Origin: Planctomycetales bacterium | Lineage (GTDB): Bacteria; 4484-113; JAFGCY01 | Assembly: GCA_022646745.1 (NCBI GenBank) | Contig: CP060262.1 | Location: 1,290,001 to 1,322,000, forward strand | Length of the DNA: 32,000 nucleotides | Direction of reading: 5' to 3' | Shown: piece by piece, positions 3 to 28,500 of the stretch | How the letters are laid out: each line of letters begins with the position of its first letter | Position numbering within the stretch: position 1 is the first letter of the stretch | Notes under the pieces: generated by a model | What the model was told of the DNA's origin: nothing | What the model saw: the letters and a program-made list of their open reading frames with translations, nothing else | Database searches by the model: none | Translations under genes and position numbers: made by a program

Positions 3-524
3 ACGCATGGCACCCTCAAGCGCCCCGGCGATGCCGACTGGAAGGAGGAGGAGCAGGTCGTCTTCAACTGGTTCGGTGACAAGTCCGACCCGATTGTGCT
101 GATCCAGTGCCGCGTTGACAGCTTCGAGGATGACCTCGAGCAGAGCGCCTACGACATCTTCTGCGACACCCTGCTTTCCAACTGGCTCAACTCAGATGAC
201 AACTACACCGTGCTTGATCCGCCGCTGCCGCGCAGTGAGGGAGAACCGCGCCGCACGCGCAGCATGCTCGGCTCGCATACCTGGAACCTGATCCAGATTG
301 ACGACCACTCCGATGCCAACGGCGGCAAGATCTACTACTCGATCTTCTGCACCTACAGCGGCAGGGACATCTACACCATCAGCTTCTACTACCTCAATCC
401 GATGACCAAGGAAGACACCCGCGTCAAGGATTTCGGCAAGCCGCTGCTGGAGAGCTTCCGCATCGCCGGTGAGGGCAGTGCCGTGGAGGAGGATGAGATG
501 GCGGCTGAGGACGGCGCTGCCTAG
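3..524 (+). CDS. hypothetical protein, N-terminus outside the window
   Basis: The frame is open from base 3 with no stop before the listed ORF at 96. It ends at TAG 522-524. There is no in-frame ATG near the left edge. No motif recognised. Confidence 0.55.
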   Translation, partial: THGTLKRPGDADWKEEEQVVFNWFGDKSDPIVLIQCRVDSFEDDLEQSAYDIFCDTLLSNWLNSDDNYTVLDPPLPRSEGEPRRTRSMLGSHTWNLIQIDDHSDANGGKIYYSIFCTYSGRDIYTISFYYLNPMTKEDTRVKDFGKPLLESFRIAGEGSAVEEDEMAAEDGAA

Positions 525-1153
525 CGCAGGATCGTTGCCAGCCTCATTTCAAAGTCCTCACGGGTCATCTCCGTCGTGACGTAGCCGACAACCTTGCCGT
601 CACGGTCAAGGAAGAAGGTGGATGGGAATGCGCTCAGGCCGAGCTTTTCCTTGACATCCACGCTGTGGTACATCGGGATCTCAAACCCCTTCTCCTTCCA
701 GAAGTCCTCGGCGGCCTTGCTGTCAACGGAGACCGCGATCATGTCGAACTCGGCCTTGCGCTCCTTGTAGACCTCATTCAGAGCGGGCAGTTCGTCCACG
801 CAGGGCGGGCACCAGTCACCCCAGAAGTTGACAACCAGCGGCCTGCCGTAGAAGGAGCTGATACCAAGCACCTCGCCGTCCGCACGGCGCACGCTGAATT
901 CCGGCATCGAACGCGCTGAGGAAGCACCGTCTGATTCCGATCCACCGCCGGGATTGGCCTGCTCGCCTGCTGCATTCTCTTTGGATGCGGCTGCATCCTG
1001 CTCGAGCTTGTTTTCTGTGACGTAAGCCTGGCCTTCCTGATCTTGAGCGAGGGTTTTTGCATTGCCGGCCTGTTCTTCGGCGGTCTTGTTGCAGGAAACG
1101 GCCAGCAGCAGTATCGCTGCCAGGGAAAGGATAATCAGCTGGATGGCTTTCAT
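521..1153 (-). CDS. TlpA/ResA-like thioredoxin-fold thiol:disulfide oxidoreductase lipoprotein, Cys form (WCPPC)
   Basis: Part of ORF 521..1234. Start moved to ATG 1151-1153, which gives the signal peptide and lipobox MKAIQLIILSLAAILLLAVSC-NK. Active site is NFWGDWCPPC and the cis-Pro loop is AFPSTFFL. Confidence 0.85.
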   Translation of the reverse strand: MKAIQLIILSLAAILLLAVSCNKTAEEQAGNAKTLAQDQEGQAYVTENKLEQDAAASKENAAGEQANPGGGSESDGASSARSMPEFSVRRADGEVLGISSFYGRPLVVNFWGDWCPPCVDELPALNEVYKERKAEFDMIAVSVDSKAAEDFWKEKGFEIPMYHSVDVKEKLGLSAFPSTFFLDRDGKVVGYVTTEMTREDFEMRLATILR

Positions 1154-1257: not shown

Positions 1258-1854
1258 TCAGCGCGTGATTTCCGCCAGCTTGGCTTCGAACTCCTCAGCA
1301 CTGATCTCCCCGAGGTGCTCATCCACCACTTCACCCTCGCGGTTGATGAAGAAGGTATGCGGGATGCCATGCACGCCGTACATGTCACCCCAGTCGCCAT
1401 CCAGTCCCCACGGGAAGGTGTAGCCGCTCTGCTGCATCCAGGGAACCGGTTCCTTCGCGCGGTGCGAGGCCAGGGCCAGCAGCTCGAACTCGCCGCTGTG
1501 CTGCTTGTACATCTGCTCAAACACGGGAAACTCCCGCTTGCAGGGCTCTCACCACTCGCCCCAGAAGTTCAGCACCAGTGGCGTCCCGATGAAACGGGAT
1601 GCCTCCATCGGGCTGCCATCCGGGCTCGTGTATTTCGCTGTCAGCAGCGGGCTGCTCTCTGCCACTTCCGGCACCACTGGGCTGTCGCCGGGCGAGTCCT
1701 TGATAGGCTGGCCTGCAGCAGCTGCATCGTCCGCATTGCCTTGGACCGTGGAATGAACGCCATCCGCTGAGCCGGAAGAGTCCTGTGGCTGTTTATTGCA
1801 GGAAGCCAGAAGCAGCAATGCGATGCAAGGCAGCAATAGCTGGATGCGAATCAT
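1258..1854 (-). CDS. TlpA/ResA-like thioredoxin-fold lipoprotein, predicted selenoprotein (W-U-E-P-C; in-frame TGA at 1549-1551)
   Basis: ORFs 1549..1863 and 1258..1524 are in the same frame and separated only by the TGA. The read-through gives [23 protein letters not shown], which is colinear with the neighbouring WCPPC paralog. The C-terminal part carries the cis-Pro loop GIPHTFFI. Lipobox is LLLASC-NK. Start set at ATG 1852-1854, which has AGGAG 11 nt upstream. GTG at 1863 is an alternative start. Confidence 0.8.
1524..1536 (-). promoter_or_regulatory. putative bacterial SECIS hairpin (mRNA CGGGA-GUU-UCCCG)
   Basis: A 5-bp stem with a GUU loop begins 12 nt 3' of the UGA at 1549-1551. The stem may extend with G-U pairs and bulges. 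Confidence 0.6.
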
Positions 1855-1884: not shown

Positions 1885-2418
1885 TTACTTGATGAGCTTG
1901 GCCAGCTTAGCCTCAAACTCATCGTGTCCCATCATGCCGACCTGCTGGTCAACCAGGTTGCCCTCAGCATCGATGAAGAAGGTATGCGGAATGCCGCTCA
2001 CACCGAACTTCGTGCCGCCATTGACATCGTGCACCATCGGGAAGCTGTAGCCGTTCTGGCTCCAGAAGCCTTCCGCATCCTGCGATGTCGGCGCGGCTAC
2101 TGCCAGCAGCTCGAACTGACCCTGGTGCGCTTCGTAACTTTTCTGGAAATCAGGTAACTCCTGAACGCAGTACCCTCACCAGTCGGCCCAGAAGTTCACG
2201 ACAAGTGGCTTGCCGAGGTACTGGGCCGTGGTCTGGGTCTGTCCACCCGTGGTCTTGAAGCTGAAATCCGTGGCCGGGTTGGGTTGCAGGGCATTGCCCC
2301 CGCTGCTGACCGTGCCACCACCACCGGAACCAGCCTGGTTGGTCTTGTTGCAGGAGAAGCCCAGCCCGGTCACCAGGACCAGGGCCAGCAGCAACATCCT
2401 TGCAGTGATCTGTTGCAT
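1885..2418 (-). CDS. TlpA/ResA-like thioredoxin-fold lipoprotein, predicted selenoprotein (W-U-G-Y-C; in-frame TGA at 2176-2178)
   Basis: ORF 2176..2418 ends in VVNFWADW followed by TGA. The same frame continues GYCVQELPDFQKSYEAHQGQFELLAVA...GIPHTFFIDAEGNLV...AKLIK to TAA at 1885-1887. Total length is 534 nt, which is in frame. Lipobox is LGFSC-NK. Confidence 0.8.
2150..2164 (-). promoter_or_regulatory. putative bacterial SECIS hairpin (mRNA UCAGG-AGUUA-CCUGA)
   Basis: A 5-bp stem with an AGUUA loop begins 11 nt 3' of the UGA at 2176-2178. Confidence 0.6.
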
Positions 2419-2556: not shown

Positions 2557-2562
2557 TTTTCC

Positions 2563-3156
2563 GTGAGTGATTCACCAAAACGCGGGGCGCGCGAGAAGCT
2601 GATAGCTGCGGCGACGGAGTTGATCCGGCGTAACGGCTACAGCGCGACCAGCGTGGACAGCATCGTGGAAGCGGCCGGGGTCAGCAAGGGCAGCTTCTTC
2701 TACCACTTCGAGGGCAAGGAGGCACTGACCACCGCCTGCCTCGAGAACTGGGACCGGATGACCACCGGCATGCTGGCGGACGCGCCATTCATGCAGCTGG
2801 AGGACCCAGTGCAGCGCCTGCAGGGCTGCCTGGAATTCTTCATCATGGTGTTCTCCGATGCCCGCCAGTATCCCTCCTGCCTGGTCGGTACCACGGTGCA
2901 GGAGGTGGCGGACAGCAGCCCGACGCTGCGGGAGGCGGCCCGTACCTGCTTTTCGCATGCAGCCGGGCAGATCGGGGGACTGATCGCCGGGGCCGCGCAG
3001 GCGCGTGGCAGGGAACTGGACAGCATGGGCCTCGCGAACCTGTGGATGGCCACCCTGCAGGGTTCGCTCCTGATGGCCAAGGCCAGCGGGGATCCGGCCC
3101 GGATCCCGGCAAACCTGCGCAGCCAGCGGGACTACATCCTCGGGCTGCTTGGATAG
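2563..3156 (+). CDS. TetR/AcrR family transcriptional regulator
   Basis: N-terminal HTH region REKLIAAATELIRRNGYSATSVDSIVEAAGVSKGSFFYHFEGKEAL. Length is about 197 aa counted from GTG 2563. The longer ORF starting at 2284 overlaps the divergent gene and is rejected. Confidence 0.85.
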   Translation: MSDSPKRGAREKLIAAATELIRRNGYSATSVDSIVEAAGVSKGSFFYHFEGKEALTTACLENWDRMTTGMLADAPFMQLEDPVQRLQGCLEFFIMVFSDARQYPSCLVGTTVQEVADSSPTLREAARTCFSHAAGQIGGLIAGAAQARGRELDSMGLANLWMATLQGSLLMAKASGDPARIPANLRSQRDYILGLLG

Positions 3157-3269
3157 GCAGCAGGGAGCAGAAAGCAGGGAGCAGACTCCCTTGTTCGATA
3201 CATCAAGTCTGCCTGCTGCTTTCAGCCAGCTGCTCACTGATTAATCTGACAACACTTCGGGAGAACAGG

Positions 3270-3788
3270 ATGACGATAGCGGAAGCGATTCTGATGGAGA
3301 TCGAACAGGAGGCCATTGCCACGCGCAAGTGCCTCGAGCGCATCCCGGCCGACAGGCTGGACTGGAAGCCGGCGGAGAAGTCGATGAGCGCCGGCGAGCT
3401 GGGCATGCACATTGCCACTTCCCCGAGCGGGATCCTGTGGATGATGATGCAGGACGAAACCGGCTTCCCCGACCCGCCGGCCGAGAAGCCGGCGATCACG
3501 CATGCCGGCATCATGCAGGCCTTCGAGGACAGCCTTGCCAGGCAGCGTGAGACCTTCCCTGGCCTGACTGACGAGTTCATGACGGCGGAGTGGAAGTTCC
3601 TCAAGGATGGCAAGGTGCTGATGGCCCTGCCGCGTGTGGCCTTCGCTCGCATGGTGCTGCTCAGCCACATCTACCACCACCGTGGCCAGCTCAGCGTCTA
3701 CCTGCGCCAGCTGGATGTACCGGTGCCGAGCATCTACGGACCGAGCGCGGATGAGCTGCCGCCCTTCATGCAGGAAGCCGCAGGGTAG
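3270..3788 (+). CDS. DinB-family (DinB_2-like) four-helix-bundle protein
   Basis: Starts at ATG 3270 with GGGAGA upstream. Sequence MTIAEAILMEIEQEAIATRKCLERIP...LLSHIYHHRGQLSVYLRQL carries the typical DinB His motif. Confidence 0.75.
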   Translation: MTIAEAILMEIEQEAIATRKCLERIPADRLDWKPAEKSMSAGELGMHIATSPSGILWMMMQDETGFPDPPAEKPAITHAGIMQAFEDSLARQRETFPGLTDEFMTAEWKFLKDGKVLMALPRVAFARMVLLSHIYHHRGQLSVYLRQLDVPVPSIYGPSADELPPFMQEAAG

Positions 3789-4016: not shown

Positions 4017-4247
4017 TTGCGCGATGCATCTTCATGGGCAGCGATGCAACTTCAGCGCGACCCGGGTGCGCGGATGCGCAGCCGCAGCGCCAGACCGAAT
4101 TCTCTTACCCGCTCATGCAAGCATTCGCGGGTCTGCAAACCGGAGCGAAGCAAGCTTCACTCCTCTTGCCCGATGCATCTTCATGGGCAGCGATGCAACT
4201 TCAGCGCGACCCGGATGCGCGGATGCGCAGCCGCAGCGCCAGACCGA
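4017..4247 (+). repeat. two copies of an 82-bp direct repeat, period 149 bp
   Basis: Copy 1 is 4017-4098 and copy 2 is 4166-4247. They differ at 2 positions. The ORFs listed here (3836..4336, 3907..4317) merely translate the repeat. Confidence 0.85.
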
Positions 4248-4315: not shown

Positions 4316-4426
4316 AAAATCCGCTCTTCTTTTTGAGCACTGCGTTGTACAGAGATGATACAGGTTCTGACCATCCGTGTGGTTTGGCCTGCGTAAAATG
4401 ACAACCAATACAAAGTAAAAAATTAA

Positions 4427-4629
4427 GTGGTCAGTGGTCAGTGGTCAGTGGGAGTGGGCAGTGGGAGGTCAGGCCCATGGCCTGACAGGTATACGGTCCC
4501 ATGGACCGCATGAGTGCGCAGAAGGCAGAAGGCAGTGGGTAGAAGCAGAATGAGAAACAGAAGCAGAAGCAGCCGCCGGTTCATTGCTATGGATTCAGCC
4601 TGACCACTGACTACTGACTACTCACCACT
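4427..4629. repeat. tandem 9-mer (gtggtcagt x3) with an inverted degenerate partner array, enclosing two CCCATGG-centred hairpins and (gcagaag)n
   Basis: Left array starts at 4427 and extends to about 4465. The inverted partner array is at about 4599-4629 (cctgaccactgactactgactactcaccac). Hairpin 1 is at 4468-4486 and hairpin 2 at 4494-4508. Confidence 0.7.
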
Positions 4630-5008: not shown

Positions 5009-6490
5009 TCAGCCTGTCGCCAGGTCGGCGTCATCGTCCACCGGCCGGGCATTGCTGGATTCACTGCGCAGGAACAATCCGGTCAGCAGCCAGGGGATGC
5101 CGGCGGAGAGCAGCAGTGCGCCCATGATCATGTAGCCATCCATGCTGTAGCGGAAGGTGAGGATCTGCTCGAAGCCCGGGAAGGGCCCGAATGCAAAGGC
5201 CTGGGTGCTCAGCTCCAGCAGGTTCTGGTACTTCTGCGTAAGCACGAATGGCACGACGGAGCAGTAAAGCGCCAGGCAGGTCAGCAGCGCATACAGCACG
5301 GCGGGCAGGGGACCGCGCCGTCCCATGATGAACAGCATCGCGAACAGGCCGAGGATGCCCATGATCGGCACCGGAGCTGCGATCCAGGCGATCCCGCTGC
5401 CGGGATGCATCAGCGGGGCAGTGGCGAACAATGGCCCATAGGTTATCTCCTCGCCGATTATGACCCTTGGTTTTCCTCCAAGCGGGTAGGGACCGTATCC
5501 GTAGCTGTGCATGCTCAGGTTCCGGCGCGCGTTCAGGAATGGGCCAGGAGATTTATAGGTCCAGTGGGCGACGACAGGATTTTCAAGGGACCAGCCAGGC
5601 GGCAGTTTCCCGTTGGTTCGCACGTGGCTTGCCATCTTCTTTTCGATCAACTCCAGATCAGTAACCGCCCCGAGATAGATGCTCTCGCTGTCCTCGCGTA
5701 CGTCCTGCACCGGATAGGGTTGAGTGACGTCCACCCGGCGCATGGCAGAAGGTCCGGTCGTCCACAGGAATACAAGCACCAGTGACAGCATGGCAGGAAT
5801 GCCAGCCCTGCGCCAGCGCGGCATAAGGAATCCGGCGATGATCCCGGCAAGCATCACTCCACCAAGCATCACGGTTATCCAGGCAAAAACGCCATCCAGC
5901 CGGCCGGACACACTGCTGTAGCCATATTCAGTCAGCAGCGGCTCCAGCAGTATCAGTCCTCCGAACAGGATCAGGGTGTGGATCAGTTTGTACTGCAGCA
6001 GCCTGGCAATCAACACACCCAGGCCGAGCCGCCAGGCATCCAGCACGCCACGGGCCAGTACGTAGAAGAACATGCCCCGGCTGATTGCCAGCAGCAGCCA
6101 GCAGCTGATTGCCAGCGGGCTGAACTGGTTTGGCAATACCCCGGGATTGTACATTGTCCGGCTGTACTCCCGGGAAATCCCCTGCAGGTAACCGGACAGG
6201 GCATCGCCAAGCAGGGCCAGTGCGAACCAGAACATCAACCAGCCCAGTTCGCGCCATTCCTCGCGGTTTGGCTTGCGGTGCAGGGTGGCAACCACCTGGT
6301 CGGCGATATGCGCCGCCGACAGTTTGCGCCGCACTTTAGGTTCCGCCAGTTTCGCCTCGGCGGCCCTGGCTGCATCGCTGCCCTCGTCAGCCTGCAGGCA
6401 GTCCAGGTGGTCCGACAGTTCGCTGGCAATCTCCGAGTGCCGCTGGGGTGACAGCCCCCAGTCATCAGGATGTCCGAAGCGTGTATCCAT
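5009..6490 (-). CDS. multi-pass membrane protein with a PadR-associated N-terminal helical domain (paralog B)
   Basis: 493 aa. The first 51 residues are identical to the upstream paralog, followed by many hydrophobic segments. The ATG lies 9 nt after the stop of the preceding gene. Confidence 0.75.
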   Translation of the reverse strand: MDTRFGHPDDWGLSPQRHSEIASELSDHLDCLQADEGSDAARAAEAKLAEPKVRRKLSAAHIADQVVATLHRKPNREEWRELGWLMFWFALALLGDALSGYLQGISREYSRTMYNPGVLPNQFSPLAISCWLLLAISRGMFFYVLARGVLDAWRLGLGVLIARLLQYKLIHTLILFGGLILLEPLLTEYGYSSVSGRLDGVFAWITVMLGGVMLAGIIAGFLMPRWRRAGIPAMLSLVLVFLWTTGPSAMRRVDVTQPYPVQDVREDSESIYLGAVTDLELIEKKMASHVRTNGKLPPGWSLENPVVAHWTYKSPGPFLNARRNLSMHSYGYGPYPLGGKPRVIIGEEITYGPLFATAPLMHPGSGIAWIAAPVPIMGILGLFAMLFIMGRRGPLPAVLYALLTCLALYCSVVPFVLTQKYQNLLELSTQAFAFGPFPGFEQILTFRYSMDGYMIMGALLLSAGIPWLLTGLFLRSESSNARPVDDDADLATG

Positions 6491-6499
6491 GTCCGTCCC

Positions 6500-7954
6500 C
6501 TATGTGGTCTCCACCAGATTTGCATCTGAATCACTCTTGCCCGCATCGACCATGAAGGCTGACATCAGCATGAACAATGACAATGGCACAAGCATGAAAA
6601 CGATGATCGCGTAATTATTGTCGGAATAGCTCCCGGTGTTCAATGCGACGGTTAACTGCGGGAATGGATGGATCAGAACTGAGCTGACTGCATACTGAAA
6701 AGGGGTGCCGAATTCCGTCCAACTCGTGTTGCCGCTCCAAGGTGAAAAGGGAGCATCCGGAAACCGCAGGAAAATTACCAGGCAGGTTATCAGCGAAAAT
6801 GCTGCCCCGGTTGGTGCAAGCATCTTGTGCAAACCAGCCTTGACTGATCTGGAAGCATCTTTCGTGCCATGCAGTATCACGCTTGCAAATGTAAGCAGCA
6901 GCATGATGATCGTTGTCAGGACAGTGAAGTTACCGGTCACATCAATATATGGCTCGGTCAGCCAGGTCTTCCTGATTTCCATATCCGGACGCAGGTGGGC
7001 CTTGTCAATGCCAAAGGATTCCCGCTTTTTTGAATACGCATTGATGAGACTATGCCCAACCTGAACATCCGAAGCGATGCCATCGAGGATAGCCCAGCCC
7101 TCTTCAAGGTTGACCCGCTGGGGGTCCATCCCATTGTCAAGAATCTCCTGCAGCACCTTCTGGCTCAGCTTGGACTTGCTCTGGAAATGAACAACAGCTC
7201 CAGGCCCCGTGAAGTAAGCAGCCAGCGCAAACATTGCCAGTCCGGAGGATACCAACCAGAGGCGCGACCTATTCATCAAGAGAAGAAGTATTGCAACGAT
7301 GCCTGCCGAAATGGCAAAAAACTCGGATGTCAGTGGAAGCTGATGTGCAAGGTTTGTCCTCAGCTGACTCGTGTTCTCAGCTGTCAGGAAATTGCGGAAC
7401 ATCACTGCCTGCACAATGGAAATCCAGAGGGAAAGCTGGATGGCTCTGGCTGCCATAACTCCGATGCCAATCCTGCTGGATCTCTTAAGTATGGCAACCA
7501 GCTGGCAAATGACGCCGATTCTGCCCGCCTGGCACAAAAGCCATGCAAGGAGAATTGCCGCGAACACAATTGGACTGGACTCTTCAGAGGAGAAGTACCT
7601 GCCGAATCTTTCTCCTGGAATATACGGAAACAAAGCTGCGGTTCTTTCGAGATACTGCCATGCCGCTGTGCCTCCTGCCAGCAGCACGATCCAGAAGCCC
7701 AGCCACATCCATTCGCGCAATTCAGCTGGAGTAGGCCAGCGCAGCAGTGTCGTTGTCAGCTGGTCGGCCACATGGGCGGAAGAGATCTTCTTTCGTACCT
7801 GCGGTTCCGCCAGCTTCGCCTCGGCGGCTCTGGCAGCGTCGCTGCCCTCATCCGCCTGCAGGCAGTCCAGGTGGTCTGACAGTTCGCTGGCAATCTCGGA
7901 ATGCCGCTGCGGCGACAGCCCCCAGTCATCAGGATGTCCGAAGCGTGTATCCAC
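6500..7954 (-). CDS. multi-pass membrane protein with a PadR-associated N-terminal helical domain (paralog A)
   Basis: 484 aa. GTG start lies 3 nt after the padR stop. N-terminus reads MDTRFGHPDDWGLSPQRHSEIASELSDHLDCLQADEGSDAARAAEAKLAEP. Confidence 0.75.
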   Translation of the reverse strand: MDTRFGHPDDWGLSPQRHSEIASELSDHLDCLQADEGSDAARAAEAKLAEPQVRKKISSAHVADQLTTTLLRWPTPAELREWMWLGFWIVLLAGGTAAWQYLERTAALFPYIPGERFGRYFSSEESSPIVFAAILLAWLLCQAGRIGVICQLVAILKRSSRIGIGVMAARAIQLSLWISIVQAVMFRNFLTAENTSQLRTNLAHQLPLTSEFFAISAGIVAILLLLMNRSRLWLVSSGLAMFALAAYFTGPGAVVHFQSKSKLSQKVLQEILDNGMDPQRVNLEEGWAILDGIASDVQVGHSLINAYSKKRESFGIDKAHLRPDMEIRKTWLTEPYIDVTGNFTVLTTIIMLLLTFASVILHGTKDASRSVKAGLHKMLAPTGAAFSLITCLVIFLRFPDAPFSPWSGNTSWTEFGTPFQYAVSSVLIHPFPQLTVALNTGSYSDNNYAIIVFMLVPLSLFMLMSAFMVDAGKSDSDANLVETT

Positions 7955-10374: not shown

Positions 10375-11808
10375 GTGGGCGCAAAGCTTAGCCAGGAACA
10401 GCAACTGGAGGAACTCACGGCGCAGGAAGCCAAACTGCGCGCTTCCGGCAGTCCGCCGGATCCAGAGAAGCGCATGATGCGCGCTGGCATCCTGGTCAGG
10501 CTCGGCCGCTACGATGAGGCACACAACGCGCTCGATTCGGCCGCTGCCGCCTGTACGGAGCTGGGCATCCCTGAGCTGGCCCGCATCATGAACATCCGCG
10601 CTGATGTGCTGCGCCTGCAGGGGCTGTACTCGGAAGCCCTGGCAAGCATCCAGGCTGCGGAACAGCGCTCGCTGGCAGATGAGCACTTCTTCCCCGGTAT
10701 CTACAACACCTGGGCGAACATCCTTGCTGACCTGGGCCGTCCCGGACAGGCCCTGAAGCTGATCCAGCGCGCCGGGGACTATTTTGCGGGCGAGGGCATT
10801 GCCTTCCCGCCACCGTTGGCCACGAATCGTGGCAACATGCTCAAGTCCCTGGGCCGCTACCATGAAGCGCTTGAGGCATATGACCATGCCCGCCGCCTGT
10901 ACGAGGAACAGGACAAGCCTGTGTTCCCAGGCATCTATTCCATGATCGGCCTGACCCTGATCCTGCAGGAGAAGTACGCAGAGGCCCTGTTGCCGCTGGA
11001 TGAATCGGAACGCTTCTGCCATGAGCAGGGCTGGGCACCGTGGTTCGGCATCGACATGTACCGTGGTGTGTGTTTCGGCAAGCTGAAGCGGTACGGGGAT
11101 GCCATGGCGGCTTATTCCCGTGCCCAGGCGATCCTTGATGAACAGCGGGTGATCGGGGAGTGGGAACTTAATTTCAGCCGGGCAATCACGATGTACGAGG
11201 CCGGACATGCAAGCGAGGCCATAGCGGAGGTTTACGAGGCCATCGCCCTCTGCGCCAAACTGGGCGTGGACCAGCCGGCGTTCATGATGGAGACCCTGCA
11301 GGACTGGTTGTCACCGCAGCCGGAGAAGCTGGCAGCGCAGCAGCAGGCCAGCCAGCCCGCTCCAATAGAGCCGGTGCCCGACAGCGAGAAGCGCTACGAT
11401 GCATTCCTGAGCTACCGCCGCGATCCCGGCCTGCCCTATTCAATGCTGATCAAGACGCACCTGGACATGAATGGGCGCAGCATCTTCCGCGACCAGGAGG
11501 ACCTGCATAAGGGCCAGTTCCACGAGGACATCATCGATGCCATCCGCCACAGCCGGCACATGATCGTGCTGATGACGCCGGGTTTCTTCGAGCGCTGCAG
11601 CAATCCCGAAGACGTGCTTCGCAATGAGATCTCCACCGCGCTGCGCTGCGGCACGCACATCATCCCGCTGATGATGGAGGGGTTCAGCTGGCCGCAGCCA
11701 GCTGATTTGCCGGCGGATATCCGCGACATCTGCAAGGTGAATGCGATGTCCTATTCCAGCGAGTTCTTCAGCGCCTTCATTGACAAACTGCTGCGCTGGA
11801 TGGGCTGA
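10375..11808 (+). CDS. TPR-repeat protein with a C-terminal TIR domain
   Basis: About 300 aa of TPR-like repeats (e.g. LGRYDEAHNALDSA, LGRYHEALEAYDHA, LKRYGDAMAAYSRA), then a Q/P-rich linker. The TIR region reads YDAFLSYRRDPG...HMIVLMTPGFFERCSNPEDVLRNEISTAL. The GTG start at 10375 is uncertain. Confidence 0.8.
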   Translation: MGAKLSQEQQLEELTAQEAKLRASGSPPDPEKRMMRAGILVRLGRYDEAHNALDSAAAACTELGIPELARIMNIRADVLRLQGLYSEALASIQAAEQRSLADEHFFPGIYNTWANILADLGRPGQALKLIQRAGDYFAGEGIAFPPPLATNRGNMLKSLGRYHEALEAYDHARRLYEEQDKPVFPGIYSMIGLTLILQEKYAEALLPLDESERFCHEQGWAPWFGIDMYRGVCFGKLKRYGDAMAAYSRAQAILDEQRVIGEWELNFSRAITMYEAGHASEAIAEVYEAIALCAKLGVDQPAFMMETLQDWLSPQPEKLAAQQQASQPAPIEPVPDSEKRYDAFLSYRRDPGLPYSMLIKTHLDMNGRSIFRDQEDLHKGQFHEDIIDAIRHSRHMIVLMTPGFFERCSNPEDVLRNEISTALRCGTHIIPLMMEGFSWPQPADLPADIRDICKVNAMSYSSEFFSAFIDKLLRWMG

Positions 11809-16496: not shown

Positions 16497-16591
16497 AGCA
16501 GGTTTTCGGACAGGTTTGATCTCTGCTTCCCACCACAACCTATGTCCAATATCCTCGGACTGCTACCCCCTACACGCCAGTTCCCAAGTCC

Positions 16592-16861
16592 TCAGTGCGA
16601 ACGCACCATGCTGACAACGGCTACCACGATCGCTGCGCCGACGATGCTCCAGATGAGTGAGAAGGGTGCGCCGCCAATCAGCACCGGCACCGGTTCCGGC
16701 AGGTGGAAGAAGTTGGCGATCCAGGGCCCGACGATGGTGCCGAGGAAACCCAGCAGCACGACGGCGACGATGTGCACGCGCCGCGTCCCCATCAGCGCAC
16801 TGGCGGCATAGCCGATTACACCGGCAATCACGAGCTGCAGCAGGAAGTTCAGAAGGCCCAT
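16592..16861 (-). CDS. GlsB/YeaQ/YmgE family small membrane protein
   Basis: 89 aa. Sequence MGLLNFLLQLVIAGVIGYAASALMG...GFLGTIVGPWIANFF...SLIWSIVGAAIVVAVV matches the family pattern. Confidence 0.8.
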   Translation of the reverse strand: MGLLNFLLQLVIAGVIGYAASALMGTRRVHIVAVVLLGFLGTIVGPWIANFFHLPEPVPVLIGGAPFSLIWSIVGAAIVVAVVSMVRSH

Positions 16862-16884
16862 GGCTGATATTGTAGTACTGCCGC

Positions 16885-17904
16885 ATGGATTCCGAGATTC
16901 GCTACAGCCGCCTTTCCCGCTATGCCCCGCTCGGGCGGGTGCTGCCCGCCTGGCAGCAAAGCCACTGTGTGGTGATCGGGCTCGGCGGGCTGGGCAGTGG
17001 GCTCTCCATGCAGCTCACACGTTTCGGTGTGCGGCGTATCACCCTGATTGACCGCGACACAGTCGGCTTCGAGAACCTCGGGCACCAGAGCCTGTTCACG
17101 ACAGCGCATGCTGAAGCTGGCCTGCCCAAGGTGCAGGCTGCTGCCGGAATGCTGGCGGCGATCAACCCGGCGGTCGAACTGGACCCGCAGTTCGCCGACC
17201 TGAGCCGCCACAATATCCGCGAGCTGTGTGCAGGAGCGACGCTGCTGTTCGACGGGCTGGATTCCTACTTCACCCGCTACATCGTCAACGACTATGCGCT
17301 GCAGTCTTCCACCCCATGGCTGTCCGCCGGCGTGGTGCGCGGTGAACTGAGCATGCGAGCGGTGGTACCGGGCGTGACCGGCTGCCTGCGCTGCCTGCTG
17401 CCGGATCCGCCGCCGCCGGGCAGTGTGCCCACCTGCAGCGCGGAAGGCGTGTTCGGCCCGCTGCTCAGTGTTGCCAACGCGATCCAGCTGGAGCAGGCTG
17501 GCCGCTTCCTCGCAGGCGAGTTCACTGCCGACGATGATGCAATGTATTCTCTCGAGCTGCCGGACTGGCGCATCCGCCGCCTGCAGCTCAATGGTCCTGC
17601 GCAGACCTGCCGGGCCTGCAGTGGCAGCTACGATTTCCTCTCCGGCCGCTTCGACCAGCAGGCCGCCGCCGCCTGCAGTGACGGCCGCTTTGAGCTGGAG
17701 CTGGGCAGTGCGATCGACATCGAAGGCCTGGCGGCAGGCCTGTCCGCCGAGACTGGCTGGGAAGTCCGGCCCAACCGCTGGTGCCTCGTCGCCGACCATG
17801 GCGCCGAGCGCTACACAGTCTTCCCGAACGGCCGGCTTGTGCTCAGTGGAACACAGGATGGATCACGCCTGAATCATTTTGCCGCCCACTGGCTCGGCCT
17901 CTGA
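16885..17904 (+). CDS. ThiF/MoeB/HesA-family E1-like adenylyltransferase with a C-terminal extension of about 95 aa
   Basis: RYSRLSRY...VVIGLGGLGSGLSMQLTRFGVRRITLIDRDTV..NL.HQ. Two Cys pairs are present, CLRC and CRAC. The tail after the second pair is not recognisable. Confidence 0.8.
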   Translation: MDSEIRYSRLSRYAPLGRVLPAWQQSHCVVIGLGGLGSGLSMQLTRFGVRRITLIDRDTVGFENLGHQSLFTTAHAEAGLPKVQAAAGMLAAINPAVELDPQFADLSRHNIRELCAGATLLFDGLDSYFTRYIVNDYALQSSTPWLSAGVVRGELSMRAVVPGVTGCLRCLLPDPPPPGSVPTCSAEGVFGPLLSVANAIQLEQAGRFLAGEFTADDDAMYSLELPDWRIRRLQLNGPAQTCRACSGSYDFLSGRFDQQAAAACSDGRFELELGSAIDIEGLAAGLSAETGWEVRPNRWCLVADHGAERYTVFPNGRLVLSGTQDGSRLNHFAAHWLGL

Positions 17905-17944
17905 TGCAGTGTTACCATGTAGCGGGCATTGAGAGGATATACAG

Positions 17945-18322
17945 ATGAGAATATTCAGTTGTTTCCTGCTGCTGGCCACCGCCGCACTGCTGTTCGGCTG
18001 TCCCAGCCCTGATTCACAGAAGAAGGTGCAGGAGGCCGCGAAGGTTCCCGGGCTGGAAGAGGCTGTGATTGCCAAGGACCGCTCGCTGCAGGCCGCGATC
18101 GAGATGAGCTGGAAGGCTGACGTGGAACTGCTGCAGGAGCAGCTCGCCGTGGAGGAGGTGCACGCCGGCAAGGTACGCATCACCGGCATCGTCTCGCGTG
18201 AGAAGCTCAAGGAACGCGCCGAGGCGATCGCCCGCGACCAGGAAGGCGTCGTTGACGTGATCAGCACGATCACCGTCGATGAAAGCCTGAAGGACAAGCG
18301 GATTTCCCTCGACGATATGTGA
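17945..18322 (+). CDS. BON-domain lipoprotein
   Basis: Lipobox ALLFGC. The BON-like region reads VHAGKVRITGIVSREKLKERAEAIARDQEGVVDVISTITV. Confidence 0.7.
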   Translation: MRIFSCFLLLATAALLFGCPSPDSQKKVQEAAKVPGLEEAVIAKDRSLQAAIEMSWKADVELLQEQLAVEEVHAGKVRITGIVSREKLKERAEAIARDQEGVVDVISTITVDESLKDKRISLDDM

Positions 18323-18381
18323 GCCACCCGGCTTATTAATGATATTGTCTTATCATCTAATCCAAGGATGAGGTGCGATTG

Positions 18382-18942
18382 ATGCGCAGACAGTTGATCG
18401 GAAGCTTCCTGCTGCTGGTGACGGTCCTGCTCGTGTTCTCCGCCTGCAACAAGCAGCAGGGCGAGAACGCGGACAGCGGCAATGGCCAGCAGGTGGCGGA
18501 AGCACCCGCTCCCGTGCGGGAAACCACCGGTGGCAATGTACCGAGCGGCCAGCCGGATCTTACCTATGCCACCTTTGCCGGCGGCAGCGGCAAGGTCAGC
18601 GCCCTGGCCGGCAAGCCCGCCGTGGTAAACATGTGGGCAGTCTGGTGAACTTCCTGTATTCAGGAGATTCCTGAATTCCTCGAATTGCGTGAAGAAACCG
18701 GCGACAAGTTCAACTGGCTGTTCGTGGCAACGGATGACATCGGTGACCCGAAGCAGCTTGTCACTGACAAGGGCTGGCCAGCCGAGGTGTTTGCGATGAG
18801 CGAGGGGGGCGACATCAAGGACTTCCACGACGGCGCTAACCCGACCACCTACTTCTATGATTCCAGTGGGAAGCAGGTTGACAAGATGGTTGGCTCATTG
18901 ACCCTCGCAGAACTGAGGGAGAAGGTCGCTGGCCTGAACTAG
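18382..18942 (+). CDS. TlpA/ResA-like thioredoxin-fold lipoprotein, predicted selenoprotein (W-U-T-S-C; in-frame TGA at 18646-18648)
   Basis: ORF 18373..18648 ends in VVNMWAVW followed by TGA. The same frame continues TSCIQEIPEFLELREETGDKF...NPTTYFYDSSGKQV to TAG at 18940-18942, and ORF 18685..18942 is in that frame. Lipobox is VFSAC-NK. ATG 18382 has GAGG 8 nt upstream. Confidence 0.8.
18658..18676 (+). promoter_or_regulatory. putative bacterial SECIS hairpin (AUUCAGG-AGAUU-CCUGAAU)
   Basis: A perfect 7-bp stem with a 5-nt loop begins 9 nt after the UGA. Confidence 0.65.
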
Positions 18943-22775: not shown

Positions 22776-25616
22776 ATGCAGACCACTGGATTCCCCGTTC
22801 TGATTGTCGTCGCAGCCTGTCTATGGCTTAGTGCCTGTTCAGGCACGGAACTGGCTACCCCTGAAGCCACGCAGGACCTCAGTGTCGCGCAGGTCACTGT
22901 TCCCGCCACACTGCCGCAGGACGCCCTGCAGCCCTGGGAACAGGACCGGCAGCCCACCGCACTGGACGCTGCGTCTGAATTCACCGCCGGTGCCGACAGG
23001 TTCATGGAGGGCGGCACTGTCTCGGATCTCGGGCTGGCCAGCCGCATCGGTGACAACAGCGGCAGTGGCGACGGGATCAGCTATGCGCTGTACCGTATTC
23101 CGCTGGCGGGTTTCCAGCCCGGGGCGCTGGCCTTCGACGTCAACATCCAGCCGGATGGATCCGCTGCCCAAAGCGAATACTACATTGGCCTGAGCAACTA
23201 TGCAGCCGGTCGCTGGGAATGGCACGGGCCGTACTCTGAGCACCACGTGCGGCTGGTGCGCAGTGATGGCCCTGGTCCGGATGTCTTCAACGACGATGAC
23301 TACACATCAGGGTTTGACAACCTGTTCGTGAACATCCTCGTGCAGGGAGACAGCCAGGTGGACGTGGTCGGGATCAGCAGTGACAGCCTGAGTGGGGCTG
23401 ATTCCGAAGCGCCTCCGGTACCGACCGGCCTGCAGGCCAGCCCGGTGGCCGGTGGCCTGCTGCTCAGCTGGGAGACGGTTGCCGCAGCGGACCTGGCCGG
23501 CTACCGGATTCACTTTGCAGATCATTCATTCATCTCGCCGGACAGTGCAGGTGTCAGGCATGCCGGCTATGTCGAAGGCAGCACGAGCCAGCTGTTGGAG
23601 AGCCTCAACGGATTGACCTACGTGCGCATAACGGCAGTTGACAACAATGGAAACGAGAGCGCCCCGTCGGCGGAAGCCTCGGCGCTGCCCCTTGCGGGAA
23701 ACGCCCCGCAGGTGCTGGCCAGTGTGAGCAAGCCGTCAGTGCAGCGTGGTGAGCCGATGGACCTGCTCGTTGTCGGTGATACGACGGGCCTGCTGTTCGA
23801 TTATGACCTGGATGGCGATGGCCTGTTTGAGCTGGCTGGCCAGTCTGCCGCAACGCAGGCGTTGCCGACCCAGGACAGCGGCCTGCTGCGCCCCCGGGTG
23901 ATGTCAATTGACTCCCAGGGCGAGCGCACTGCACTCGGAGGGGTCAGCCTGATCGTCAGCTCCAACAGCCGCCCGGTGGCCAGTGCGGGAGTATCGGCCC
24001 AGAGCGGCCCGGCACCGCTGTCAGTGGACTTTGACGGCACCGAGAGCACGGACTTCGACGGCAGCATCGTGGGCGGCGGCTGGGACTTCGACGGTGACGG
24101 CATCTACGACGCCTTTGACGAGGAAAGCACAGCCCAGCTGACCGCCAACCACAGCTATGCCGCTCCGGGCTTCTACAATGCCCGCCTGCGTGTGATTGAC
24201 GACGAGGGAGCATGGGATGTGGACACAGTCGGCATCTTCGTTGAGGGAAGCGGCACTGGACAGGACTTCCCGCCGCTGGCCATGCTCACAAGCAGCGACT
24301 CCAGGGTCTACATGGGTGGGCTTGACCAGACCTATGAAGTGACGCTTGATGCCTCGGGCAGCACTGACCCTGAGGGCGGTGCACTTGAATATGCATTTGA
24401 TCCGGAGGGAGATGGCGAGTTCACTGCATTTGGCAGCCAGTCCAGCATTGGCCACGAGTTCGACGGAAACGGCGTGCATCAGGTCAGCGTCCAGGTGCGA
24501 GATGAAGCGGGCCAGGTCTCATCCGCCAGCCTGCTGGTCAGTGTCTACAGGGTGGATTCGCTGCTGCTGGATACGCAGTACGACCTGTCAAACCGTACGG
24601 CGATCGTGGGCCTCAAGGACAACGGCTCGCGCAGGATCGGCATCCTCTACAACGATTCCGTCAATGATGACCTGAGGTTCACCTACAGCGCGGACAGCTT
24701 CGGGGACAGCTGGATGCCATCAAAGATCCTTGACAGCAACGGAATGGAGTGGGCAAGCTTCATCCAGGACATCTCCCAGTTCGCATTCTTCTACTACCGA
24801 GACGGCGACCTGTTCTACAAGCACAGCAGCAATGATGGCACGAGCTTCGGCACCGGTACCGTTGATGATTCAGCGGATGACGCCGGCAACTACTGCTCGG
24901 GGATCTACTACAACGACGCCCGGGGCAATGGCCCGGCCGTGGCCTACTACAACGCTGATGACGGTGACCTGTACTTCAACAAGGCGGCCAGCGGAGGCGG
25001 CACCGGCGTCGGCAGCTGGGACCCGCCTGTGGCGGTGGACGGCACGGGGGACACCGGGCTCTTCTGCTCGCTGCAGTTGGTTGCCAACCGGCCGGCGATT
25101 GCCTACTACAGGGCGGACAACGGCAACCTGCTGTATACGCGCGCAGACGACAAGGAAGGCACCACCTGGTCAGCACCGGTGGTGGTTGACGGCACAGCAG
25201 ATGACATCGGACAGCATGCCAGCCTGGCCCTGATCAGGGACGAGGCTGGCAACGTCTTCCCCGCGATTGCCTGCCACAATGCGACCACGAACAGGATCGA
25301 GTACCGCCGGGCCCTGGATGTCAACGGTGACAGCTGGGGTGATGTGGTCGAAATCAGCCTGACACCGGACATCACCGCGCTGCAATTGATGCAGGTCGGT
25401 GACCGCGTGATGGTCTGTGCCAGCCGCGACGATTTCTACGGTGCATGGTTCATGGTATCCGCGGATGCCGCTGGCTCGGACTGGGTGATTCACGTCATCA
25501 ACCCCTCCGGCTCCCCGGACCTGTTGTCAGCCAGCATCACGCAGGAGGGACACCCGGTGTTCGCCTACTGGCACGTGTTTGAGGGCCTGCGGGTGGCCAG
25601 GCCGAAGCTGGACTGA
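22776..25616 (+). CDS. 946-aa surface lipoprotein: N-domain, FN3-like, two PKD-like domains, C-terminal propeller-like repeats (paralog 1)
   Basis: Lipobox WLSAC. The FN3-like region reads APPVPTGLQASP...AGYRIHF...VRITAVDNNGNES. The PKD-like region reads PLSVDFDGTESTDFDGSIVGGGWDFDGDG...YNARLRVIDDEGAWD. A repeated motif of the form YY.ADDGDLYF / YYRADNGNLLY occurs in the C-terminal part. Confidence 0.8.
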   Translation: MQTTGFPVLIVVAACLWLSACSGTELATPEATQDLSVAQVTVPATLPQDALQPWEQDRQPTALDAASEFTAGADRFMEGGTVSDLGLASRIGDNSGSGDGISYALYRIPLAGFQPGALAFDVNIQPDGSAAQSEYYIGLSNYAAGRWEWHGPYSEHHVRLVRSDGPGPDVFNDDDYTSGFDNLFVNILVQGDSQVDVVGISSDSLSGADSEAPPVPTGLQASPVAGGLLLSWETVAAADLAGYRIHFADHSFISPDSAGVRHAGYVEGSTSQLLESLNGLTYVRITAVDNNGNESAPSAEASALPLAGNAPQVLASVSKPSVQRGEPMDLLVVGDTTGLLFDYDLDGDGLFELAGQSAATQALPTQDSGLLRPRVMSIDSQGERTALGGVSLIVSSNSRPVASAGVSAQSGPAPLSVDFDGTESTDFDGSIVGGGWDFDGDGIYDAFDEESTAQLTANHSYAAPGFYNARLRVIDDEGAWDVDTVGIFVEGSGTGQDFPPLAMLTSSDSRVYMGGLDQTYEVTLDASGSTDPEGGALEYAFDPEGDGEFTAFGSQSSIGHEFDGNGVHQVSVQVRDEAGQVSSASLLVSVYRVDSLLLDTQYDLSNRTAIVGLKDNGSRRIGILYNDSVNDDLRFTYSADSFGDSWMPSKILDSNGMEWASFIQDISQFAFFYYRDGDLFYKHSSNDGTSFGTGTVDDSADDAGNYCSGIYYNDARGNGPAVAYYNADDGDLYFNKAASGGGTGVGSWDPPVAVDGTGDTGLFCSLQLVANRPAIAYYRADNGNLLYTRADDKEGTTWSAPVVVDGTADDIGQHASLALIRDEAGNVFPAIACHNATTNRIEYRRALDVNGDSWGDVVEISLTPDITALQLMQVGDRVMVCASRDDFYGAWFMVSADAAGSDWVIHVINPSGSPDLLSASITQEGHPVFAYWHVFEGLRVARPKLD

Positions 25617-25683
25617 GCCTGACAGCGGCCTGGATTTTGCCTGACGGTAGAATGGAGCATTGAATCCCCTCCCGGAGGAACAG

Positions 25684-28500
25684 ATGCGACCCATCATGCA
25701 CCCGGTGAGCGCTTGCGCCATCCTTACTGTTATCCTGCTTGCTTCATGCGGCTCCGACAGGACTGCCCGGTTGCCCGAATCAAGCCAGCCCGTCGGCCAG
25801 TTGCAGCCAGCGATGGAATTCCCCAGCGGATTGCCTGCCGACGGACTGCAGCCCTGGGAGGAAACCCGGGCTGGCAGTGCACTTGATGCCCAGTCCGAAT
25901 TCACAGCCGGCACGCAGCGCTTCCTGGAGGGGGGCTCCGTGCTGGATGCCGGAGCCGCCAGCCGGATCGGTGACAGCAGTGGTGCTGGCGATGGCATGAG
26001 CTTTGCGCTCTACCGCCTGCCGATGGCGGGACAGCAGCCTGGTGCGCTGGCATTCGATGTCAATATCCTGCCGGATGGCGACTTCGGGCCGAGCAGCTAC
26101 TACATCGGCCTGAGCAACTATGCCGCGGGCCGCTGGGAATGGCATGGACCATACAGCGAGCACCATGTGCGCCTGGTGCGCAGCAGCCAGCCCGGCCCAG
26201 ATGTGTTCGCCTCCGAGGACTACACTTCTGAGTTTGACAACCTATTCGTCAACGTGCTCGTGCATGGCTCAAGCCAGGTGGATGTGCTCGGCATCAGCAG
26301 TGACAGCCTGAGCGGCGCTGATGCTGAAGCGCCTCCCGTGCCGCAGGGACTTGCCGCCACCGGCATCAACGGTGGAGTTGCACTGACTTGGAATCCGGTG
26401 CTGGCGGCGGACCTGGCGGGATACCGTGTGAATTTTTCAAAACAAGCCTTCAGTGCCCCTGATGAAGCGGGAGTGCAGCATGCCGGATTCGTGGAGGGCA
26501 ACACGCGGCACCTGCTGGCCGGACTGAGCGGAGAAGTGCACGTGCGGATCAGTGCCGTCGACAACAACGGCAATGAAAGCACGCTGTCCGATGAGGTCAC
26601 AGCCACAGCTCTGTCAGGGGATGCCCCGCTGATCCGGCTGGAGGTCAGCAACAACAGCGTGCCGCGCAATGCAGTGGCAACGGTGGAGGTTGTCGGCGGA
26701 GATGAAAACCTGCTGTACGACTACGACCTTGATGGCGATGGGATCTACGAACTGACCGGTGAAACGGATACGCTCAAGGCCCTGCCGACGCAGGAAACCG
26801 GGCTGATCCGTCCGGCGGTGCGTGCCAGCGACCTGGATGGTGAACGTATTGCGCTAGGTGGAGTCAGCCTGCTAATTTCATCCAACAGCCGTCCGGTGGC
26901 GGACGCACTGGCCTCAGTGCAGTTCGGCACTGCCCCGCTCAGTGTGGATTTTGACGGCAGCGGCAGCACAGACTTTGACGGCACGGTCGTCGGTGGGGGC
27001 TGGGACTTCGACGGCGACGGGGTCTATGACTCCTATGATGAGGGTTCAACTGCCAACCTCAGTGCAAGCCACCAGTACAACACGCCGGGATTCTACAACG
27101 CCCGGCTGAAGGTGCTTGACGACGAGGGGGCCTGGGATGTGGATACGATAGGCATCTTCGTGGACGGCGGCGAGACCCAGAACCGGCCCCCGGTGGCAAA
27201 CCTGGTGTTCAGCCCGGATTTCATCATTTCCGGCCTATATGTCAGCCCGATTGACATGCAGTTTGACGCCAGCTCAAGCTTCGACCCCGACTTTGACACG
27301 CTTGAGTACGCCTGGGATGTGAATGGTGATGGAAGCTATGCATCCTATCAATCACTGTCCACTGCCAGCATCTCCAGCTTCACCCAGGGATTGCAGAGCG
27401 CGGGCGTGCGGGTGCGCGACGAGGCCGGCAACATCAGCCAGGCCACAGTGGTCTATGCCGTCTACCAGTTCAATTCACAGCTGGTGGACAGTGGTAGAAC
27501 CGTTGGCAATGCAACATCGATCGTGTCCGTGGACAGCATCCTCGGCAGTACCAGGACCGGCATTGCGTACTACGACTCGAGCAATGATGACCTGATGTTC
27601 ACGTACTGCACGGACCAGAACGGCTACAGCTGGCAGCCCGCTTACGTTGTGGAGGCACTCGGCGGCGAATGGATGAGCCTCGTGCCCAACGCCAGCGACT
27701 TCCAGATGGGCTATTACCGGGATGGCAACCTGTACTACAGGGAGAGCGATGACGAGGGCAAGAGCTTCGAAGCGCCGATCGACGTGGACACGGGCGCAGA
27801 CGATGCCGGGATGTACGTGGATGCGGTGCGACTCACCAACAAACCCGCCTTTGCCTACTACAATGCCACCGACGGGGACCTTTACTATGCAGTTTCCAAC
27901 AGTGTCAATGTCAGCAACTTCGGCACCCCGGTCAATGTGGACGGAACCGGTGATACAGGGCTCTATCCCGATGTGGTGTACAGCGGCGGGAACCACAGCA
28001 TTGCCTATTACAGGCAGGACAATGGCAACCTGATGTTCGTGCAGTCAACGGATACCTCAGGCCTGAACTGGGGATCGCCTGTGATGGTTGATGGCAACGA
28101 CGGTGATGTCGGCAGACATCCATCGATGCTGAGCATCAGTTTCAAGTTCTGCATAGCCTACCTGGATTCACTCAATGATGTCTGGTTCGTGAAGTCAAGC
28201 GATTCCTCCGGTAGTGCCTGGGGCACGCCACTCCATCTCGGCAATGTCAACGCAAAAACCTGCGAGATGATGGTTGTGGGAGACCGGCTGGCGATCTTCA
28301 TCGGGGATGATGTCCTCGGGCGCGGCGAGTTCATCCTGTCGGAAGACATTAGCGGCGACAGCTGGGGAAGCTGGGAGTATTACGACTACGGCGATACGAC
28401 CGGCTTCATGTCGGCAGCACCGATGTTCAACGGCATGCCGGGACTGGCATACTGGGATGAGGACCAGGAGCTGTACTTCACGACCCCGCGGCTGGACTGA
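25684..28500 (+). CDS. surface lipoprotein, tandem paralog 2 of the preceding gene
   Basis: Same domain order as paralog 1. ATG 25684 lies 5 nt after GGAGGA. The listed ORF, from TTG 25660, is also exactly 946 aa. Lipobox is LLASC. Confidence 0.8.
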   Translation: MRPIMHPVSACAILTVILLASCGSDRTARLPESSQPVGQLQPAMEFPSGLPADGLQPWEETRAGSALDAQSEFTAGTQRFLEGGSVLDAGAASRIGDSSGAGDGMSFALYRLPMAGQQPGALAFDVNILPDGDFGPSSYYIGLSNYAAGRWEWHGPYSEHHVRLVRSSQPGPDVFASEDYTSEFDNLFVNVLVHGSSQVDVLGISSDSLSGADAEAPPVPQGLAATGINGGVALTWNPVLAADLAGYRVNFSKQAFSAPDEAGVQHAGFVEGNTRHLLAGLSGEVHVRISAVDNNGNESTLSDEVTATALSGDAPLIRLEVSNNSVPRNAVATVEVVGGDENLLYDYDLDGDGIYELTGETDTLKALPTQETGLIRPAVRASDLDGERIALGGVSLLISSNSRPVADALASVQFGTAPLSVDFDGSGSTDFDGTVVGGGWDFDGDGVYDSYDEGSTANLSASHQYNTPGFYNARLKVLDDEGAWDVDTIGIFVDGGETQNRPPVANLVFSPDFIISGLYVSPIDMQFDASSSFDPDFDTLEYAWDVNGDGSYASYQSLSTASISSFTQGLQSAGVRVRDEAGNISQATVVYAVYQFNSQLVDSGRTVGNATSIVSVDSILGSTRTGIAYYDSSNDDLMFTYCTDQNGYSWQPAYVVEALGGEWMSLVPNASDFQMGYYRDGNLYYRESDDEGKSFEAPIDVDTGADDAGMYVDAVRLTNKPAFAYYNATDGDLYYAVSNSVNVSNFGTPVNVDGTGDTGLYPDVVYSGGNHSIAYYRQDNGNLMFVQSTDTSGLNWGSPVMVDGNDGDVGRHPSMLSISFKFCIAYLDSLNDVWFVKSSDSSGSAWGTPLHLGNVNAKTCEMMVVGDRLAIFIGDDVLGRGEFILSEDISGDSWGSWEYYDYGDTTGFMSAAPMFNGMPGLAYWDEDQELYFTTPRLD

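Follow-up and report, generated by a model that had tools for sequence, protein, structure and literature searches.

Bacterial UxxC selenoproteins with a thioredoxin fold include the 'Prx-like thiol:disulfide oxidoreductase' (PF00578) and the 'thiol:disulfide interchange protein' (PF13098), and such families have been predicted in Geobacter, Syntrophus, Desulfotalea, and others (PMC1794560; PMC13188914). UGC-containing proteins of the TlpA family are also an established predicted selenoprotein family; such selenoproteins come mostly from anaerobic Deltaproteobacteria and Clostridia, and conversions from cysteine (Cys) to selenocysteine (Sec) are frequent (PMC1794560; PMC13188914).

Here, we describe a gene of a 'Planctomycetales bacterium', neither a deltaproteobacterium nor a clostridium, that very probably encodes a selenoprotein of this class. 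Like the UxxC families, its predicted product has an AhpC-TSA/Redoxin-type fold and would carry Sec as the first residue of the CxxC motif, with a SECIS-like element within the coding region after the UGA codon; for both, Cys homologues are widespread. The comparison is by domain and motif only, and the clade to which our gene belongs differs from those families in being divergent, with a lipobox and a long linker. The genome differs as well, in that it combines three predicted Sec paralogues with one Cys paralogue.

Cys-type extracytoplasmic reductases with known structures (1jfu, 4txo, 4nmu, 1st9, 3kh7, and 2yp6) are TlpA of Bradyrhizobium, ResA and StoA of Bacillus, CcmG/DsbE, and Etrx of Streptococcus. 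TlpA, ResA, CcmG, and Etrx share with our protein the W-x-x-W-C-x-x-C motif, the cis-Pro loop, the domain size, and membrane or lipid anchoring (in our case predicted), whereas their nucleophilic Cys would be replaced by Sec in our protein. NF041054, the 'ResA-like WAxxUGC motif-containing protein', also joins a ResA/TlpA-like fold to Sec in the active site. Its model has 354 positions compared to 186 aa here, and its motif is UGC as opposed to UTSC (in W-A-V-W-U-T-S-C); with a score of 21.3 bits against a cutoff of 300, we rejected membership in this family.

The closest described RNA elements are the SECIS of Escherichia coli fdhF and the bSECIS consensus. As in these, the hairpin described here lies within the ORF with its loop about 17 nt past the UGA, and a G (followed by U or A) opens a small apical loop. 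Compared to the fdhF-type SECIS, the stem is shorter and perfect, without the bulged U; the sequences are unrelated, and the E-x-P codons in helix alpha-1 determine part of our hairpin.

Reading frame and annotation of the gene

The window referred to below is the whole stretch of DNA that was analyzed, 32,000 nucleotides in length; its proteins are, in gene order, UNM09447 to UNM09469 in GenBank. At the locus of interest, GenBank and the gene callers report two hypothetical proteins of 88 aa (UNM09465.1) and 85 aa (UNM09466.1), and the gene callers begin the 85-aa ORF at TTG 18685. A preliminary description of this DNA had joined the two ORFs into one gene interrupted by UGA. Base for base, a TGA at 18646 to 18648 follows ...KPAVVNMWAVW, and the frame remains open beyond it, via TSCIQEIPEFLEL, to a TAG at 18940 to 18942; the residues around position 89 are PAVVNMWAVW-U-TSCIQEIPEFLELR. 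The frame and stop given in that description therefore stand, but its GTG start at 18373 does not, the gene callers choosing ATG 18382. The two short "hypothetical" genes at 18382 to 18942 are almost certainly one gene, with the following features (positions in the window).

18382..18942, + strand: recoded TlpA/ResA-like lipoprotein gene, 186 codons with proposed Sec at codon 89, plus TAG (from translation)
18365..18374, + strand: Shine-Dalgarno-like AAGGATGAGG, 8 to 17 nt before the ATG, read from the sequence
18382..18447, + strand: putative signal peptide and lipobox (MRRQ, hydrophobic stretch, F-S-A-C22-N-K), by inspection
18646..18648, + strand: in-frame UGA, proposed Sec codon (U89), at the nucleophilic position of W-A-V-W-U-T-S-C
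18655..18657, + strand: codon of the resolving Cys92 (TGT), an invariant column in the paralogue alignment
18841..18843, + strand: codon of the predicted cis-Pro154 in an N-P-T-T loop on the active-site face, aligned with the P of VPET/IPTE in 3kcm and 2yp6

Fold, active site, and family membership of the product

We replaced U by C in the read-through product before profile matching. The Pfam families AhpC-TSA (PF00578; 36.2 bits, cutoff 26; residues 58 to 164) and Redoxin (PF08534; 27.0 bits, cutoff 26.6; residues 61 to 131) both matched across the TGA, and Thioredoxin scored 24.2 bits (cutoff 23.5). All 34 PDB relatives are TlpA/ResA/DsbE/thioredoxin-like and align with residues 57 to 174 in a single stretch; the best are TlpA, ResA, DsbE/CcmG, Etrx, and other extracytoplasmic thioredoxin-fold reductases. 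A single domain spans the UGA codon, and the UGA lies at the catalytic Cys. The W-x-x-W-C-x-x-C active site, which opens helix alpha-1, is present with the UGA codon standing for its first Cys. Position 89 corresponds to the first Cys of WCPPC/WCGPC/WCVPC in three sets of homologues: a Cys paralogue within the window, the equivalently placed genes of relatives, and PDB chains. The codon of Cys92 is a synonymous TGC in a strain variant. The NPTTYFYD segment proposed earlier as the cis-Pro loop is present, with Pro154 falling on the cis-Pro of solved TlpA/ResA-like structures, and this predicted cis-Pro is an invariant column in the paralogue alignment.

At the N terminus, an n-region and an h-region are visible on inspection, and Cys22 is the predicted lipidation site. 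The pattern [A/S]-[A/S/G]-C followed by N-K is common to all four paralogues in the window, and relatives likewise have a Cys after a hydrophobic stretch. The earlier view of the gene as a UGA-interrupted thioredoxin-fold lipoprotein with a U-x-x-C site is thus supported, the fold by Pfam and PDB alignments that span the UGA, with a putative lipobox visible on inspection.

Scores against NCBIfam equivalog models were far below their cutoffs: 43.3 bits against 230 for TlpA (NF047696), 32.1 against 170 for ResA (NF002854), 29.1 against 123 for DsbE/CcmG (TIGR00385), and 38.2 against 210 for StoA (NF041202), which indicates a family member that is not an orthologue of any characterized member. 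PF00578 combined with UxxC does place the product among the 'Prx-like thiol:disulfide oxidoreductases', by the definition of that family and not by its exemplar, WP_010940744.1. A word-indexed protein search with the read-through query returned just two weak Cys homologues; the gene's own fragments were missing as well, probably because such short ORFs are not indexed.

Paralogues and conserved gene order

The preliminary description placed two similar genes in a tandem array about 16 kb away. We confirmed this array, which occupies 521 to 2418 on the minus strand and consists of two UGA genes and one Cys paralogue. Both UGA genes are interrupted at the same codon as the gene described here; UGA recoding is thus recurrent in this genome, as had been suggested.

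1885..2418, - strand: paralogue A, UGA-interrupted TlpA-like lipoprotein, W-U-G-Y-C, TGA at 2176-2178, hairpin core at 2150-2164
1258..1854, - strand: paralogue B, UGA-interrupted TlpA-like lipoprotein, W-U-E-P-C, TGA at 1549-1551, hairpin at 1523-1537
521..1153, - strand: Cys paralogue, WCPPC, TGC at 809-811, no hairpin, serving as internal control

In GenBank, the Cys paralogue is named 'TlpA family protein disulfide reductase', while our gene and both Sec paralogues are each entered as a pair of hypothetical proteins. If each pair were merged, three predicted envelope redox enzymes would result, and the genome would count as Sec-decoding. We scanned the window for further TGA-split ORF pairs and, besides many spurious open frames of high GC content, found only these three with a redox motif. 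The tandem array lies at one end of the window. Its neighbors are a TetR regulator (about 2560..3156), transcribed divergently, and a DinB-family gene (about 3267..3788).

Immediately upstream of the recoded gene are two conserved neighbors, through which we reached its relatives.

16885..17904, + strand: ThiF-family adenylyltransferase
17945..18322, + strand: BON-domain lipoprotein

The order ThiF, BON, TlpA-like is kept in loci L023 (GCA_041395205.1), L032 (JGI 3300061720), L033, L034, L035, and one JGI contig, with ThiF identity falling from 80% to 51%. A Transgly_assoc gene (GlsB/YeaQ-like, on the opposite strand) precedes the ThiF and BON genes in the window (16542-18322) and in L023 and L032 to L036, and one or two TlpA-like genes end the conserved order. 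This arrangement may point to a role connected with the cell envelope or stress response. The JGI contig, from JGI 3300075153, has a split gene of 61 and 95 aa at its ThiF-BON locus.

In L023 and L032, the TlpA-like gene is 53 to 59% identical to ours and reads VVN[ML]WAVW-TGA-[AG]SC. In L033 and L035, the gene at the corresponding position is a 219-aa Cys form with WCGPC, whereas L034 has a UGA form, FFGVT-TGA-GPC, followed by a Cys paralogue. The genes of these three loci are only 25 to 33% identical to ours, so their orthology is a matter of gene order alone. A check for alternation between TGA and TGY among orthologues, recommended earlier, therefore gives TGA in all three members of the gene's own clade and, among the distant genes at the same position, TGC (L033, L035) or TGA (L034).

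A hairpin downstream of the UGA codon

Nine nucleotides past the TGA, as first described, ATTCAGG (18658-18664) and CCTGAAT (18670-18676) flank AGATT (18665-18669).

18658..18676, + strand: SECIS-like hairpin, stem of 7 to 8 bp, loop AGAUU (or GAU)

With a 7-bp stem, the loop AGAUU begins 16 nt from the UGA; a loop-closing A-U pair extends the stem to 8 bp, leaving the loop GAU at 17 nt and giving -7.9 kcal/mol. It had been called the best of the three hairpins, which is right for stem length, the longest, but not for stability, paralogue B being equal (-7.5 to -8.0 kcal/mol). Published bSECIS criteria comprise a loop of 3 to 9 nt, a stem of 4 to 16 bp, a G in the first two loop positions, a distance of 16 to 37 nt between UGA and loop, and a minimum free energy of -7.5 kcal/mol or better (PMC13188914). 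The proposal of a SECIS-like hairpin after the UGA agrees with this set in every point.

We estimated how often such a hairpin would occur by chance. Among the 1118 TGA triplets in the window, 8% precede some hairpin of at least this stability (-7.5 kcal/mol) that fits simple SECIS-like rules, and for 1.4% the spacing is 16 to 18 nt; the hairpin alone is therefore weak evidence. Together with the comparative data that follow, we regard the hairpin evidence as strong.

Six Sec genes (our gene, L023, L032, L034, and paralogues A and B) were aligned by codons over 39 nt beginning with the UGA. Columns 15 to 19 and 25 to 29 form a 5-bp core, which is paired in 29 of 30 cells in the same register across all six. 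Compensatory changes occur at three pairs: the first is split evenly between A-U and G-C, with three genes each; the second is C-G in all but one gene, which has G-C; and the third is U-A four times and G-U once. Pairing across the 7-pair helix reaches 85.7% of cells, compared to 24 to 60% when the 3' strand is slid by one to three columns, and the observed covariation score was reached in 2 of 500 shuffles, in an analysis of six sequences only. All six genes share the loop AG(A/U)U(N).

The Cys homologues lack this structure. In all five, just two of the five core pairs are present, the G-C pairs set by the Glu and Pro codons, and the energy of the core helix is positive; two of the five have the AGUU(U/C) loop along with the two G-C pairs. 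Part of the predicted hairpin is thus forced by the conserved E-x-P protein motif. A covariance model run over 455 kb found only the Sec genes and their copies, at 44 to 55 bits, with 17.5 bits for the L033 Cys gene; because it was built from the same six sequences, which match by construction, this tests specificity only. Overall, the hairpin is conserved, covarying, and specific to Sec genes. Rfam was searched across the entire window at gathering thresholds and, near the site, at E<=10; neither search found anything relevant for the hairpin. To our knowledge, no general bacterial SECIS model exists, so this null result is expected.

A competing hairpin pairs CUUCCUG (18650-56) with CAGGAG (18661-66), and RNAfold slightly prefers it in windows of 45 to 48 nt. 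Its loop is too near the UGA to suit a SECIS, and it would be covered by any ribosome pausing on that codon. The arrangement CCUG...CAGG...CCUG, which permits two mutually exclusive hairpins, occurs at 18650-18666 in the window and also in L023 and L032.

Selenocysteine as the probable residue inserted at UGA

We propose that this is a genuine recoded gene and very probably a selenoprotein gene (a probability of roughly 0.85), encoding a TlpA/ResA-class lipoprotein in which the attacking Cys has become Sec (U89-T-S-C92). The redox-active position of the codon, the SECIS-like element, and the long-term upkeep of UGA all point to Sec as the inserted residue. When the ribosome reaches the UGA at 18646-48, the hairpin at 18658-18676 would recruit SelB-GTP-Sec-tRNA(Sec) through its loop AGAUU, which has G in second place and starts 16 to 17 nt past the UGA, and Sec would be inserted without termination. 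We infer the export, lipidation, redox partner, and substrate of the protein: it would be exported and then lipid-anchored via Cys22, with a Gly/Gln/Pro-rich linker keeping the domain in the periplasm. There, the selenolate would attack a substrate disulfide (or an oxidant), Cys92 would resolve the selenenylsulfide, and a membrane transporter of the CcdA/DsbD type would re-reduce the active site.

The evidence above demonstrates translation of the downstream frame, not the identity of the inserted residue, and an alternative is that the UGA is recoded without Sec, by a near-cognate tRNA (Trp or Cys) stimulated by the hairpin or by another Cys route. The search for Sec machinery is in keeping with this: neither the window, nor the roughly 10 kb flanking it on each side, nor any of 13 related loci contained selA, selB, selD, or tRNA-Sec; the two flanks hold no selenium-related genes, and ARAGORN detected no tRNA in the window or the 13 related loci. 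We nevertheless consider this alternative unlikely. The UGA falls exactly at the redox-active Cys, which is the Sec site of known UxxC selenoproteins (PMC13188914, PMC1794560), and the hairpin fits SelB-type SECIS geometry, including the loop G. Trp at this site would inactivate the enzyme, and for Cys a TGY codon suffices, as in the homologues.

Conservation of the TGA codon and the downstream frame

Four other metagenome assemblies contain the 573-bp locus without any difference, and a strain with 98.7% identity departs from it by just two synonymous changes and one Leu-to-Met change. The UGA codon and the downstream frame are conserved, with the TGA kept in L001, L023, and L032. For the codons 3' of the TGA, three pairwise comparisons gave dN/dS of 0.33 to 0.39 at dS of 0.73 to 0.95, and within the clade the downstream frame shows one in-frame indel of two codons, no stops, and no frameshifts. 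These ratios and the intact frame indicate that the downstream frame is translated and under selection.

Bacterial Sec insertion is often inefficient, so a truncated product probably occurs, and UGA-A is a reasonably efficient stop context. Since both ORFs are callable, translation might mainly terminate at the UGA, the functional product being the 88-residue lipoprotein fragment, possibly along with an 85-residue protein from TTG 18685. We think this decidedly improbable. The split falls between strand beta-1 and helix alpha-1, so that each fragment would have only half of a thioredoxin fold, and the 12 codons from the TGA to TTG 18685 hold the invariant resolving Cys and a conserved E-x-P-x-F. 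Moreover, the internal start is not common to the relatives, where the fragments range from 75 to 89 aa.

A change from TGC or TGT to TGA needs a single base, and the listing of two hypothetical ORFs by annotators would also suit a pseudogene whose downstream part is in decay, or a mistake made in sequencing or assembly. The preliminary description had named an error at this codon as a possible flaw, and this is excluded, since at least five independent assemblies have the same TGA, as do three diverged relatives. The downstream dN/dS, the restriction of indels to an in-frame one, and the TGA at the same codon in paralogues A and B and the L034 gene tell equally against decay. Judged from these comparative data, both forms of this explanation are effectively refuted.

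Finally, in-frame TGAs in three genes could mean that the organism reads UGA as sense (genetic codes 4 or 25), a reading to which we give next to no credibility. Of 23 genes called with confidence in the window, 9 end in TGA, among them paralogue B and the neighboring BON gene, which indicates the standard code without reassignment. In addition, conserved genes such as MnmG, KdsA, and ThiF are uninterrupted, and G+C is about 61%.

Distribution and significance of the predicted Sec form

We searched for further relatives with the C-terminal half of the protein. An exhaustive HMMER search found only 25 in 1.84 billion representative proteins. Outside the query's own fragment cluster, the closest match was 46% identical over 80 aa, an ORF of the C-terminal half only, and none of the full-length matches exceeded 36% identity (over the C-terminal half); no Cys form of the gene's own clade was thus seen among these matches. 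Peptide-pattern scans of GTDB genomes and JGI metagenomes returned distant Cys homologues only (Gordonia, Bacteroidaceae, and three metagenome contigs), indicating that the species is absent from those collections. The public sets also contain TlpA-like ORFs of the C-terminal half only in P0153 and P0157, the latter beginning with MQELPAF right after xxC. Unannotated Sec forms of this TlpA-like family therefore appear to be common.

We regard the gene as a divergent addition to the known UxxC thioredoxin-fold selenoproteins, real but unsurprising. With it, a known class gains predicted selenoproteins of an uncultured lineage that would be exported lipoproteins, and the current understanding of selenoprotein biology is left unchanged. 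Its value lies mainly in annotation and as an example of Sec and Cys genes at one genomic position, with a SECIS laid over a conserved protein motif. More speculatively, and with considerable doubt, this little-studied lineage may maintain a family of Sec-TlpA paralogues, exported and anchored by lipid, in which Sec and Cys have replaced each other again and again, the SECIS being built on the E-x-P-x-F codons. Given the two G-C pairs and AGUU loop in some Cys forms, two or three nucleotide changes would suffice to make or destroy the SECIS. If such flipping occurs, these genes would provide a natural model for the origin and decay of a SECIS inside a coding sequence.

Other features of the window

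Between 3790 and 4910 lies a non-coding stretch of about 1.1 kb for which Rfam gave no convincing match. Two 82-nt copies of a direct repeat are 98% identical (4017-4098 and 4166-4247); a 30-nt repeat is inverted (3822-3851 and 3970-3999), and GTGGTCA heptamers form inverted arrays (4426-4448 and 4600-4622). On the minus strand, 5009-6490 and 6500-7954 encode tandem multi-pass membrane proteins of 493 and 484 aa. Their N termini of about 50 residues (MDTRFGHPDDWGLSPQRHSEIASELSDHLDCLQADEGSDAARAAEAKLAEP) are identical and the proteins diverge beyond, which suggests a recent duplication or gene conversion.

On the plus strand, 22776-25616 and 25660-28500 encode tandem paralogous PKD-domain proteins of 946 aa whose N termini are signal-peptide or lipobox-like; the L001 strain has a single copy of this gene at the corresponding position. 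A 477-aa protein encoded at 10375-11808, also on the plus strand, combines TPR repeats with a C-terminal TIR_2 domain (Pfam) and may have a role in defense or signaling.
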